Positions 1,847 through 55,584 of a stretch of 64,000 nt of DNA are shown here, one piece after another. The stretch spans positions 9,165,544 to 9,229,543 of the forward strand of contig NC_057753.1 in NCBI RefSeq assembly GCF_004010195.1, read 5' to 3'. Numbering within the stretch: the stretch's first letter is position 1; every line of letters begins with the position of its first letter. The position numbers and the translations under genes were made by a program. This DNA comes from Chiloscyllium plagiosum (Eukaryota). The notes under the pieces were generated by a model. The model saw only the letters and a program-made list of their open reading frames with translations, searched no databases and was not told where the DNA came from.

Positions 1847-1937
1847 GGGCTCGTCTGGGATTTGAAGCCGGGACCTCCCGCTAATGGGCACTGTTAAAGG
1901 GCCCTAAGCGGGAATCATACGCCTAGACCAACGAGCC
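1847..1937 (-). tRNA. tRNA-Pro(AGG) with 19-nt intron (1883-1901); T-arm lesions, probable pseudogene
   Basis: Minus strand: GGCTCGTTGGTCTAGGCGTATGATTCCCGCTT-AGG-G[CCCTTTAACAGTGCCCATT]AGCGGGAGGTCCCGGCTTCAAATCCCAGACGAGCCC. A T6 Pol III terminator follows (1838-1843). Confidence 0.88.
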
Positions 1938-3123
1938 AGAGGGCCGGAACGCGACTAACGCCCCACACCGCTTGCGCGACCTGAGACTTGCTCAGTATGA
2001 AATACATTTGAGATTGCTCTGAGAATTGCAAGCGGCAAAGCGTTTTCTGCTTGTCATTCTGTCCCCGGGGCAGAATGGCCACTTCGTCTCATCCCCAGGA
2101 ACTGGACTACCTCCACTGGTGGATAATTAAACCATTTTATTTCTACTTGCACGTTGTTCTGGGGGGTGGGACGGGGTGCGGGTAGAGTCCATTCGCTCTT
2201 CTGCTCTCTCTCTCTCTCTGAAACCCTTGGGGTGAGAGGTGTCAGTTACATTAATGCGGGGAACATGAACAACTTTGATTGTGAACTTTCTCCAAGGGTC
2301 TGTTATCGGAGAGATAGAAAGATGCTGTGCTGGCAGGACAGAAAGAAATGGACACCGAGGACTCTTCGCTCAGGTAAATTCACATGGTTGTGCAGTCTTC
2401 TTGGTGTTCAGAAATCGTCTTCACGCAGCAATCTTACGGAAAGTCTATTGCAAAGTGGGCATCGCTTTCTTTGCTGCGACCGCGCAGCAGTTAACATCTG
2501 AGCCCCAAGTGCCCCAGATGAAGAGAATCCGAGTGAAACCTTCACTCACTGAGAGTCATCCCCACGGCCCTGAGCTGAGGGACTGCAGGCAGTCCAACAC
2601 GGAAGGGACGGTTAAAAATGAACCAGTTTTGCTCCCTCAGCCTCTCTGTCCCAGAGACAGGCAGTGGACGGCATAAACACGTAGCATCATTCTCCCGCAG
2701 ACAGAAGCCGTTCAGCCCATCGAGTCCACGGCGACTGTCTGTCACTTGTCTCTCTCTCTCTGAGGTTATTCGCAATCGGTGGTATCCGTCCTAATAGTAG
2801 GGGACTATGTCTGAGTCGTGATGCGGTTTCTGACATCTGACATGCTTGTCATTCTCGTCTGAACCAGGGTGGCGAATTACTGCAAGGAATGGACGAAACC
2901 GGAAGGCATGTATTTTAACTTTACCAGCTGATTGGCATCACAGAGAACTGGGTTTGCGATTCGGTTCAGAGGAAACCGACGAAGACCAGAATACCACTGA
3001 GACTTCTAAAATCATGCCACTTGATTTGAGTGGATTTGCCGAGTGCATGCCATTGGGATACTCGGCAGCTTGTAGAAGAGAGCACCGATCCAAAGGAAAG
3101 CAGCTCGAGGTGACATTGAACAA

Positions 3124-3168
3124 TAGCAGAGGATGGTTTCGATCCATCGACCTCTGGGATATGGGCCC
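3124..3168 (-). pseudogene. 3' part of tRNA-iMet, truncated at the anticodon stem and joined to a zinc-finger fragment
   Basis: TAGCAGAGGATGGTTTCGATCCATCGACCTCTGGGATATGGGCCC is the reverse complement of the 3' 45 nt of iMet; the sequence then switches abruptly. Confidence 0.88.
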
Positions 3169-3530
3169 CTGGTGACCCACCAGCAGCTTCACACCGGGGA
3201 GAGGTCATTCACTTGGTCCGAGTGTGGGAAGGGATCCATTAACTCCCCTGACCTGCAGACAAACCGGCACATTCACACCAGGGAGAGGCTGTTCACCTGC
3301 TTCGTCTGCGGGAATGGGTTTAGCTATTCATCCATCCTGCTGGCGCACAGGCGCATCCACACTGAGGATAGACCGTTCTCCTGGTCTGTGTATGGTAAGG
3401 GATTCACAGATTATTCCAGCTGCACAGACACCAGCGGGTTCACACTGGGGAAAGGCCTTTCACCTGCTCCGTGTGTGGAAAGGGATTTAGTCAGTCATCC
3501 CATCTGCTCAGACACCAATCCAGTCACACC
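3169..3530 (+). pseudogene. C2H2 (Kruppel-type) zinc-finger array remnant
   Basis: HTGERSFTWSECGKG, HTRERLFTCFVCGNGFSYSSILLAHRRIHTEDRPF. Several Cys/His residues are lost and there is a frameshift near 3420. Confidence 0.88.
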
Positions 3531-3810
3531 AAGTAGAGCACGTTTGGATTCTTTGTGGGTGTGACTTATATTAGTATACAAGAGGAAGGGTAGTATTGCT
3601 GAGGCAGGACTGACTGCAGGTAGAGTAGGTGGCGGTGCATGGCTGATAGCATGGAGCAGAGGATCCAGAAAGAGTATTGTTGCTGAAGGTTTCGAATTTG
3701 TAGTGTGTACTGGGTATCCTGTCCAGGTTCAAACTGTGTTGGGCTGAATGTTGTCCGGGGTCCATCTGAGATCAGATGGTTCGATAGGCAGTTCTGAGGA
3801 AAAGCTGATT

Positions 3811-52489: not shown

Positions 52490-54700
52490 CTAAATTGGAG
52501 GAAGACTCAGGTATTAGGCAAGATCTTTCAAAAGCTGATTGGGGGCAGATGTTCGCAGGTTAAAGGACTGCTGGAAAATGGGAAGCATTCAGATATAAGA
52601 TAACAAGAGTCCAGACACAGTATTTTCCTGATTCGGAGATGCCGGTGTTGGACTGGGGGTACAAAGTTAAAAATCACACAACACCAGGTTATAGTCCAAC
52701 AGGTTTACTTGGAAGCACACTAGCTTTCGGAGCGATGCTCCTTCATCAGGTGATTGTCTGATGTAGAGTATATTCCTGTTAGGGTGAAAGGAAAGGCTGG
52801 TAGGTTGGGGAATGCATGATGACTAGAGAAAATGAGATTTTGGTTAAGATAAAGAAGGATGCATATATCAGGTATCGGCAGAGAGATCGACTGAATCCTT
52901 ACAGTATAAAGGCAGTACGAGCATACTTAAGAGGGAAATCATGAGGGCAAAAAGGGGACATGAGATAGCTTTGGCAAATAGAGTCATGGATAACCCAAAG
53001 GGTTTTTATAAATGCATTAAGGACAAAGGATAACAAGGGAGAGAATAGAACTCCTCAAAGATCAGCAAGGCGACCTTTGGAGCAGCAGTAGTTGGGCTGC
53101 GGGTGCGGGATACTGAACGATATTGTGCATCAGTGTTTACTGTGGAGAAGGGCATGCAAGATATAGACTGTGAGAAAGTAGATGGTGACATGTTGAAAAA
53201 ATGCCCATATTACAGATGAGAAATTGTTGGATATCTTGATATGCATAAAAGTGGATTAATCCCAAGGACCTGATCAGGAGTACCCTAGAACTCTATGGGA
53301 AACTGGGGAAGTGATTGCTGGGCCTCTTACTGAGATATTTGTATCATTAATAGTCACAGGTGAGGTGCCGGAAGGCTAGAAGGTGGCTAACGTGGTGCCA
53401 CTATTTAAGAAAGGGGGTAAGGAAAAGCCAGGGAACTATAGACCAGTGAACCTGACATCCGTGATGGGCAAGGTTTTGGGGAGAATCCTAAGAGACAGTA
53501 TTTACATGTATTTGGAAAGGCAAGAATTGATTAGGGATAGTCAGCATGGCTTTATCCTTGGGAAATCATGTCTCATGAACATGATGGGGTTTTTTTGAAG
53601 AAGTAACAAAGTGGATTGATGAGGGCAGAGCGATGGACGTGATCTCCCTGGACTTCAGGATGGCGTTCATCAATGTTCCTCATGGGAGACTGGTGAGCAA
53701 GGTTTAATCTAATGGCATGCAGGGACAACTAGCCATTTGGATACAGAACTGGCTGGAATGCAGAAGACAGAGGGTGGTGATGGAGGGTTGCTTTTCAGAC
53801 TGAAGGCCTGTGAAAAATGGTGTGTCACAAGGATTGATGCTGGGTCCGCTACTTTTTGTCATTTATATAAATTATTTGTATGTAAACGGAGGAGGTATTT
53901 TTAGCAAGTTTGTAGATGACACCAAAATTGGAGGTGTAGTGGACAGTAAACAAGGTTATGTCAGATCACAACGGGACCTTGATCAGATGGGCCAATGGGC
54001 TGAGGAATGGCAGTTGGAGGTTAATGTAGATAAATATGAGGTGCTGCATTTTGGAAAAACAAATCAGAGCAGGACTTTTACACTTAATGGTAAGTTCCTT
54101 GGAAGTGTTGCGGAACAAAGAGACCTTGGAGTTCAGGTTGATAGTTCCTTAAAAGTAGAGACGCAGGCAGATTGGATAGTAAAGAAGGCGTTTGGTGTGT
54201 TTTCCTTTGTTGGTCAGAGCATCGAGGATAGATGTTGGGAGCTCATGTTGCCAGTGTACAGAACATTGGTCAGGCCACGTTTGGAATATTTGATGTAATT
54301 TTGGTCTGCTTACTATCGGAAAGATGTGAAACTAGAAAAGGTGCAGAAAAGATTTACAAGGATGTTGCCAGGGTTGGAGGTTGGAGTGTAGGAAGGTTAC
54401 TATGAAACTGCATTTCCCGCGGCCGAAGCTTTCCCACGGCACAAAGCAGGTTTTCTAAAGTATATTTAAACCCCTTACTTTGCTTAAACTCAAACTGCAT
54501 TGACTTGGAGGAGAGTGGGATTTGCAAAGTGCCCTCCCCTCCACACGTGCCTCAACTGCAGGACAGCTGTCCGGCCCGCCCTCCATTGTTGACGTCACAA
54601 TGCGGATGCAGCCCTGTCAGTTTCAGAGTGGTTAGGATATCTGGGCTGCATGGATGAGTTGGACCGAAGGGTATGTTTCCGTGCTGTACATCTGTGTCAC
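52490..54700 (+). mobile_element. CR1/HER1 LINE, decayed ORF2; inverted paralogue of 30060-32035
   Basis: ANVVPLFKKGGKEKPGNYRPVNLTSV; GVSQGLMLGPLLFVIYIN...SKFVDDTKIGG (RT motifs). Confidence 0.93.
52631..52766 (-). mobile_element. Short insertion with hammerhead-like core and ~12-bp target-site duplication, inside the LINE
   Basis: Minus strand CCTGATGAAGGAGCATCGCTCCGAAAGCTAG; flanked by AGTATTTTCCTG (52619-52630) and AGTATATTCCTG (52767-52778). Confidence 0.75.
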
Positions 54701-55135
54701 TCTGTCAGACTCCATGGGATTCTCTGCCCAAGAGAGCAGTTGTGACAGCTTAATGAAGTATCTTGAAGACGCAGTTGGATGGGTTTTTGCATGGTAGGGG
54801 AATTAAGGGTAGTCGGGATTGTGCAGATTGGTGGAGTTGTGATCTTAATGAATGACGGAGCAGGCTTGACCAAATGGTCTACTCCTGCTTCTGTTACTAT
54901 GAATCTGTACCACTGCATTTCCCGTGGCAGAAGTTTTCCCACGGCACAAAGGAGGTTTTCTAAAGTATATTTAAACCCCTTGCTTTACTTGACCTCAAAC
55001 TGCAGAGACTTGGAGGAAAGTAGAATTTGCAAAGTGTCCTTCCCTCCACACGTGCCTCAACTGCAGGACAGCTGTCCGGCCCGCCCTCCATTGTTGACGT
55101 CACAATTCGGATGCAGCCCTGTCAGTTTCAGAGTG
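54407..55135 (+). repeat. Direct repeat of ~225 bp (54407-54630 and 54912-55135)
   Basis: ACTGCATTTCCCG..GGC.GAAG.TTTCCCACGGCACAAAG...GCCCTGTCAGTTTCAGAGTG occurs twice. Confidence 0.9.
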
Positions 55136-55495
55136 AAACTCCCTCCCTCTGGGCAACATCTGGGAGCCAAGCAATGTCTCCCCCTTTCCATTTACCATCC
55201 TCCAGCAGCGAGGGGGAAGGGGAGGTAGGGGTGGGTGAAACACTGTTCACTTGTAGCAACTGGAGTGAATCCATGGAGGGAGCAGACTCTCGAAAGGTGC
55301 TCAAATACTTTCTATCTCTCTTAAAGCTATTTTCCTTGTGTTTTCCCTCAGTTTGGCACGTATACAGTTTGCACCCGAGAAAAGGATTGCTCCTTTCCTC
55401 ATGTTCACAACTAAAATGTTAGATTCTCAAGGAACTGAGCAGCATTTAAGGGATTGGCACATTGCTCAAAAAAATGGAGGCCACCTCGGGCCTGT

Positions 55496-55584
55496 GGCTC
55501 GTTGGTCTAGGGGTATGATTCTCGCTTCGGGCCTTCTGTTGCGAAGGCATGCGAGAGATCCCGGGTTCAATCCCCGACAAGCCC
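55496..55584 (+). tRNA. tRNA-Pro(CGG) with 18-nt intron (55532-55549); 3' T-arm/acceptor lesions
   Basis: GGCTCGTTGGTCTAGGGGTATGATTCTCGCTT-CGG-G[CCTTCTGTTGCGAAGGCA]TGCGAGAGATCCCGGGTTCAATCCCCGACAAGCCC; the 5' exon is identical to canonical vertebrate tRNA-Pro. Confidence 0.9.

Follow-up and report, generated by a model that had tools for sequence, protein, structure and literature searches.

Inserts in amplified tRNA-Pro genes of Chiloscyllium plagiosum are probably canonical tRNA introns, carried beside intronless genes

The subject of this report is a stretch of 64,000 nucleotides from Chiloscyllium plagiosum (assembly GCF_004010195.1, contig NC_057753.1, positions 9,165,544 to 9,229,543 of the forward strand), called the window below, and the family of insert-bearing proline tRNA (tRNA-Pro) genes of which it holds five copies. 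The window lies in a repeat-rich tRNA region on the contig that we number C44, in a 3.56-Gb assembly. The features that concern this family are as follows, with positions counted from the first base of the window.

1847..1937, minus strand: tRNA-Pro(AGG) array copy 1; 19-nt insert at 1883-1901
1517..1846, minus strand: 3' flank of the AGG cassette; 92-98% identity at 29 other loci
35803..35892, minus strand: decayed tRNA-Pro copy 2; 18-nt insert at 35839-35856; anticodon gone, G32
49133..49222, plus strand: decayed tRNA-Pro copy 3, duplicate of copy 2; 18-nt insert at 49169-49186
35425..49599, no strand assigned: 6-kb inverted duplication bearing copies 2 and 3; arms 35425-41417 and 43639-49599
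50452..50540, plus strand: tRNA-Pro(TGG) array copy 4; 18-nt insert at 50487-50504; A46
50541..50887, plus strand: 3' flank of the TGG cassette; 85-96% identity at 39 other loci
55496..55584, plus strand: tRNA-Pro(CGG) array copy 5; 18-nt insert at 55532-55549; A46
55476..55495, plus strand: inner 5' flank (-20 to -1) of the CGG cassette, hypermutable; probably the pre-tRNA leader

Aligned with an intronless tRNA-Pro gene of the same genome, by which the inserts were delimited, the five copies carry inserts of 19, 18, 18, 18 and 18 nt after position 37, as the original prediction, made from the window's sequence by itself, had reported. The third-last base of the insert is a purine in every copy (A, A, A, A, G), with U32 as its partner in copies 1, 4 and 5, and nhmmer and blastn searches of the window found neither a sixth copy nor an intronless one. 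The damage that the prediction ascribed to every copy was also recovered, in 5/5. Copy 1 has the lesions G18C, G53C and G64A, with a T6 terminator 3 nt downstream; copy 4 has lost a D-loop G and its T-stem is broken; copy 5 lacks a T-loop A and has G64C and an acceptor mismatch. Copies 2 and 3 read G32 and have no Pro anticodon in the same alignment and, since they are the two arms of one inverted duplication (94% identity between arms), the window holds four independent copies. ARAGORN, with introns allowed, detects three of the five; its Ala and Val calls and its shifted introns were rejected on alignment with the intronless genes. The anticodon stem of copy 1 also shows a compensatory pair (T28-A42 to C28-G42), despite the T-arm lesions.

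The genome was surveyed by an exact tRNA-Pro motif search in which a gap of 0-25 nt was allowed, with the reversed motif as control. This census returned 73 matches and the control none, so the insert-bearing family is not a product of chance. The insert is present in 66 of the 73 and absent in seven, and it measures 18 nt in 64 of the 66, the remaining two being 11 and 13 nt long. By hand count, the insert-bearing matches comprise 15 AGG, 22 CGG and 29 TGG copies, and no GGG.

Three classes of tRNA-Pro gene can be told apart. The intronless class consists of eight genes on contigs C12, C15, C18 and C90400, the eighth having been located in locus L040, beyond the seven of the census; it covers all three anticodons, seven of the eight have perfect exons, and all eight have G46 and T-rich trailers. 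The next class is a pair of head-to-head intron-bearing Pro-AGG genes, A and B, lying 3.1 kb apart on C23 (C23:37.32 Mb; L045, L046). Their exons are intact save for a common T20C and, in gene A, C50T; they have oligo-T terminators and flanks that are not of the cassette type, and the 3' flank of gene B is single-copy in the genome. Among the exact matches, C20 is found only in these two AGG genes and in one TGG array copy, and in no intronless gene. In a second species (6 runs from 3 studies), 47-50% of the sequence words of the gene B region recur, words that do not necessarily include the intron; the small shares seen in three further organisms were not used, and the same search listed no RNA run, a negative that speaks neither for nor against expression. 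The remaining class, to which the window copies belong, is that of the arrays: amplified AGG, TGG and CGG cassettes on C44 and on unplaced contigs, whose 3' flanks are mutually homologous (69-84%). Because these flanks are common to all three, the array subfamilies represent one intron-bearing cassette in which the anticodon has changed. The overlap between flank searches and census (9 of 29 flank loci for the AGG cassette, 18 of 39 for the TGG cassette) leads to a rough figure of 55 copies per array subfamily and about 150 in total, among which short unplaced contigs may include alleles.

Relative to the intronless genes of the same genome, the insert lies exactly between positions 37 and 38, and its base -3 is a purine in 62 of the 66 insert-bearing matches (hand count). 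The introns of C23 genes A and B are unalike, yet each is 18 nt long with A at -3. In gene B, bases 32-36 all pair with -3 to -7 (p = 0.015 against 20,000 shuffled introns), and four of these five positions are paired in gene A and in the intact TGG and CGG copies. The predicted folds of genes A and B place the 3' splice site in a 3-nt bulge, and that of L044 also places it in a bulge after the anticodon-intron helix; in several other copies a bulged 3' splice site is absent from the lowest-energy fold. Human TSEN, the tRNA splicing endonuclease, takes its ruler from the mature domain, and it makes the 3' cut only if pyrimidine 32 is paired with the purine at -3 (PMC8479045). The mature tRNA domain is intact in the C23 pair, in L044 and in 6/37 of the flank-picked copies described below, and not in the five window copies. 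TSEN genes are present in vertebrates; our exon-by-exon search of the genome with the TSEN profile PF01974 gave no matches and was uninformative.

Intron base -5 appears to track wobble base 34, a pattern that is suggestive only and that amounts to about two independent changes. It is A in 25, G in three and C in one of the 29 copies with T34, G in 15 of the 22 with C34, and C in ten and T in two of the 15 with A34. With A34, a C at -5 could pair only once the A had been converted to inosine, and conversion at so early a stage is speculative.

The condition of the arrays was assessed in 20 AGG-cassette and 20 TGG-cassette loci, selected by their 3' flank because picking for good exons was to be avoided; these are the best hits among 40 scored of 441 (AGG) and 389 (TGG) candidates. 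L086 (at a contig end), L107 (with an N run), L094 (with an internal duplication) and the window copies were left out before array copies were counted. None of the 40 loci is cleanly intronless. Six copies have clean exons, three being identical to intronless-gene exons (L095, L101 and L109, of which the last two may be recent duplicates) and three having the subfamily variant alone. Divergence from the consensus is 139/2603 in exons versus 57/645 in the intron (Fisher p = 0.0016, with cells that are not independent), 135/628 in the inner 5' flank and 209/5175 in the distal 3' flank. This is a pattern of birth and death under weak selection. The TGG copies L090, L096 and L108 have all lost the same 13 nt from the variable loop and T-arm, so that either dead copies have been amplified or the deletion is recurrent. 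The 19 AGG-cassette copies include five CGG, one TGG and one GGG anticodon (L074, L077, L079, L083, L084, L087), and in this cassette a shift to CGG seems commoner than the transition to GGG.

Divergence around the genes may also record transcription. In 23 CGG copies picked by gene, a choice that leaves the flanks free of bias, divergent sites number 35/269 and 36/174 (13-21%) at positions -20 to -1, against 4/265 and 3/178 (<2%) at -40 to -21; in the same analysis, far-upstream values of 0/560 for the TGG set look artefactual and were not used. A peak of divergence in the inner flank is a mark of active tRNA genes (PMC6130373), and by analogy the hypermutated inner 5' flank suggests a footprint of array transcription. 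The bodies of copies 2 and 3 differ at 16/90 sites versus 4.3% elsewhere in the duplication, a level reached by none of 65 windows, and the neighbouring cassette end in the duplication is likewise raised, up to 11%. As both copies are dead, such hypermutation needs no functional product. The 20-nt 5' flanks of copies 2 and 3 are identical though the bodies differ.

A survey of 29 dispersed or partial loci revealed retrocopies of the family. In ten of them (L010, L017, L024, L033, L035, L123, L128-L131) the tRNA has the full 18-nt insert and is followed, at most 13 nt on, by a short interspersed element (SINE) on the same strand; L122 is an eleventh, 5'-truncated, SINE-fused copy, and L047 is doubtful. 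In the truncated L120, L121, L122 and L127, automatic estimates of insert length are unreliable, and these loci were read separately. The SINE body is about 300 bp long and ends in (TCTAA)n-like or A-rich sequence in the four chimeras examined in full, and anticodon, intron and junction are not the same from one fused copy to the next. A search around the SINE-fused copies gave no convincing target-site duplication. In L010 and L017, homology to the array flanks ends 19-20 nt upstream, coinciding with the hypermutable zone, and for this reason -20 to -1 is probably the pre-tRNA leader. The fused copies look like template-switch chimeras of the kind formed by U6 and long interspersed elements (LINEs), which suggests that unspliced tRNA-Pro precursors were once present in germ-line cells.

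One SINE-fused copy with a CGG anticodon and A46, L110 (C2:96742691), is exactly without the 18-nt insert. Its trailer is that of L010 in 9/9 bases, its SINE begins at +12 as in L010, L017 and L024, and the end of its leader resembles that of L017 over a match of 4-5 bases. All eight intronless genes differ from it, with G46 and with trailers at least 3/9 bases off, and the other intronless SINE chimeras (L111, L113, L117) have G46. L110 probably preserves a precursor from the intron-bearing family that had been spliced while its ends were still untrimmed, and is hence a probable fossil of splicing. L115 (C27:22988696, minus strand), an intronless Pro copy, is followed about 10 nt downstream by a degenerate sequence that we take to be tRNA-Leu-like, and is possibly a two-tRNA chimera. 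Five 5'-truncated intronless tRNA-Pro copies, L116 (C12:48355407), L118 (C14:32398698), L119 (C1:20855573), L121 (C35:31015353) and L127 (C31:38829980), have a CCA end and then a repeat end common to all five; they look like long terminal repeat (LTR) primer-binding sites with most of the primer tRNA copied.

Taking position, pairing and retrocopies together, we give a probability of about 0.72 to the insert being a genuine canonical intron of the TSEN type; mammals are not known to carry one in this isotype, and the intron family probably stands beside the intronless Pro genes, not in their place. An old intron-bearing tRNA-Pro gene would then survive as the two intact single-copy Pro-AGG genes at C23:37.32 Mb, and the intron-bearing cassette would have been amplified by DNA-level duplication into tRNA arrays on C44 and unplaced contigs, diversifying inside them into AGG, TGG and CGG subfamilies. 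RNA polymerase III (Pol III), acting in the germ line through the internal A and B boxes, would transcribe the arrays or would have transcribed them in the past, and the resulting precursor would have a leader of at most some 20 nt and a trailer of some 10 nt. In this precursor U32 would pair with the purine at -3 and bases 33-35 would lengthen the helix; with the 3' splice site held in a bulge of 3 nt, TSEN could cut by its ruler, and the 37/38 intron would be removed by endonuclease and ligase. With continuing birth and death of array copies, the five in the window would be dead or dying members, and the intronless genes would supply the same three tRNAs in parallel. The function of the arrays today is uncertain, and we infer transcription, TSEN cleavage and any present share in the tRNA pool from sequence.

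Much of the original prediction thus stands, namely the canonical position, the anticodon-intron pair and the presence of all three isoacceptors, but the lineage has not switched its Pro genes to introns, since the eight intronless genes, seven with perfect exons, cover all three anticodons. Nor do the array subfamilies stem from a gain before the vertebrate isoacceptors diverged, because they share flanks and are one cassette with a changed anticodon. The prediction had allowed for functional members elsewhere, and intact ones were found: exons are intact, with the insert, in the C23 pair, L044, L095, L101 and L109, so the high-scoring Pro genes of this genome are not all intronless. The possibility it raised that such copies are SINE-like pseudogenes does not apply to the arrays, which have both flanks in common and no SINE tail.

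Several observations weigh against the reading of the insert as a genuine intron. The intronless genes make the intron family dispensable in principle. Clean exons occur in only 6/37 flank-picked copies, one of the copies has a GGG anticodon, and exon divergence (5.3%) is no lower than that of the distal 3' flank (4.0%, biased low because the loci were chosen by that flank). The AGG cassette consensus reads C in place of G18, which should weaken the contact between D-loop and T-loop, and the CGG cassette is without a T4 run within the first 22 bases downstream. Gene B aside, pairing in the fixed register is non-significant in each of the 12 other sequences tested (p 0.13-0.78). L110 is the sole clear fossil of splicing, and its source may have been an intronless gene absent from the assembly; L120, a 5'-truncated TGG copy with A46 that is one G short at the junction, is a weaker fossil. 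Finally, L115 carries A46 with flanks like those of the intronless L068 and looks derived from an intronless gene, so that A46 can arise by chance.

One alternative, which we regard as a real though lesser possibility, is that the intron was once spliced and that the arrays have since become dead weight. They would go on being transcribed and accumulating mutations, the C23 pair would at best be the only active intron-bearing genes, and nearly all tRNA-Pro would come from the intronless ones. This agrees with the preferred reading that the insert is a real intron. It accommodates the lesions beyond the subfamily variant in 31/37 flank-picked copies, the G18C of the AGG cassette, exon divergence not below that of the distal flank and the excess of differences between the dead copies 2 and 3, whereas it is at odds with exons diverging less than introns in the same copies and with the existence of clean copies (L044, L080, L081, L095, L098, L101, L109). 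We consider it distinctly improbable that the insert was never spliced, arising as a chance insertion in a pseudogene that spread by segmental duplication, with L110 owed to a template switch, or to gene conversion, involving an intronless tRNA. The near-perfect intronless genes for all three anticodons speak for this reading, as does there being a single clear splicing fossil, and template switching by reverse transcriptase is active on these RNAs. However, chance insertion offers little reason for the exact 37/38 position, for a constant 18 nt and a purine at -3 across the unalike introns of C23 gene A, gene B and the arrays, or for C23 exons remaining intact while their introns diverged; moreover, a switch that produced L110 would need its breakpoint between positions 38 and 46 while preserving an array-type leader. 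Least credible, and disfavoured, is a tRNA-derived SINE family with an 18-nt insertion in its head. About 11 dispersed copies are indeed fused to a SINE, but their variation in anticodon, intron and junction is as expected of independent chimeras, and the array copies have hundreds of bases of common flank on both sides, lack a SINE tail and sit among other tRNA genes.

The preferred reading, that of a canonical intron family beside intronless genes, can also be extended, in a form that we think unlikely though somewhat less so than chance insertion. There would be two Pro systems, with a few intronless somatic genes on the one hand and, on the other, a large germ-line or maternal set of arrays whose three isoacceptors all depend on splicing by TSEN, and the C23 pair would be relics of vertebrate Pro introns lost in mammals. 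Base -5 would be tuned to the wobble base, with A where that base is U34, G where it is C34, and C where it is A34 converted to inosine ahead of splicing, a tuning that we hold to be just as doubtful. Were this true, proline decoding in eggs would depend on tRNA splicing.

The remaining tRNA genes and pseudogenes of the window, none of which has an intron, are the following.

993-1064: Met
18134-18209: Asn
18674-18778: Ser-like remnant
20695-20766: Glu
33755-33826: weak hit
51277-51349: Trp

Trp and Met cassettes again adjoin Pro cassettes in L056, L064-L067 and L069. Remnants of C2H2 zinc-finger sequences, recognised by eye, lie among the tRNA cassettes of the window at 21617-22325, 37418-38023, 47015-47506 and 58074-58754. 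An open frame of 313 codons at 56230-57171 (plus strand) resembles a Penelope-like element in its reverse transcriptase end and its GIY-YIG nuclease.

Vertebrate intron-containing tRNA families are usually given as four, and Pro would be a fifth isotype, with all three anticodons. Intron-bearing genes with intronless twins of identical mature sequence would provide a natural experiment on the purpose of tRNA introns, be it in modification, expression or stage specificity. The marker bases C20, A46 and C18 would separate the two gene classes in one tRNA-seq run, and the pre-tRNA/SINE retrocopies make precursor ends and splicing readable from the genome alone. To our knowledge, humans and mice have no such insert in their tRNA-Pro genes. 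A single low-scoring human Pro-AGG gene is annotated with an intron, for which a literature search found nothing. The literature search turned up no account of a tRNA-Pro intron family in a vertebrate; GtRNAdb lay outside that search, so the family may already be catalogued. In those supplement files of PMC11574265 that were searched, the word 'intron' has no matches.

The human intron-bearing families, Tyr-GUA, Ile-UAU, Leu-CAA and Arg-UCU, are spliced by TSEN (PMC10275265, PMC8479045), and the Pro family resembles them in having a short intron one base 3' of the anticodon with pyrimidine 32 paired to a purine at -3. As in human Arg-UCU and Leu-CAA, where five of six and five of seven genes respectively have the intron (PMC10275265), intron-bearing and intronless genes coexist. 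Unlike the human families, the isotype here is Pro with three anticodons, an intron-bearing array majority stands beside few intronless genes, and the family is known from DNA alone. The animal section of a GtRNAdb survey gives Tyr, Ile-UAU, Leu-CAA, Arg-UCU and Met-CAU as intron-rich, without Pro; in its ranking across all eukaryotes, going by the axis labels of Fig. S7, Pro AGG, UGG and CGG stand in the upper third (PMC12168002). Yeast tRNA-Pro(UGG) is a spliced intron family (PMC4090602), and thus a Pro gene with a canonical intron, the likeness being one of kind.

On zebrafish chromosome 4, repetitive tRNA clusters encode maternal tRNAs, and isodecoders of later stages lie in isolated genes (PMC11417395). 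The arrangement described here is similar in that repetitive arrays of variant isodecoders (A46, C18) stand apart from a few isolated canonical genes, with zinc-finger remnants in the same region; it differs in that the parts of the zebrafish paper drawn on here mention no tRNA introns, and stage specificity in our case is an analogy only. Template-switch chimeras of U6 and LINEs, and retropseudogenes of pre-tRNAs, are also known (PMC4476161). The SINE-fused copies are like the U6/LINE chimeras in joining a Pol III precursor 5' of a retroelement in one orientation, and unlike them in their SINE partner and in a precursor that retains, or in one case has probably lost, a tRNA intron.

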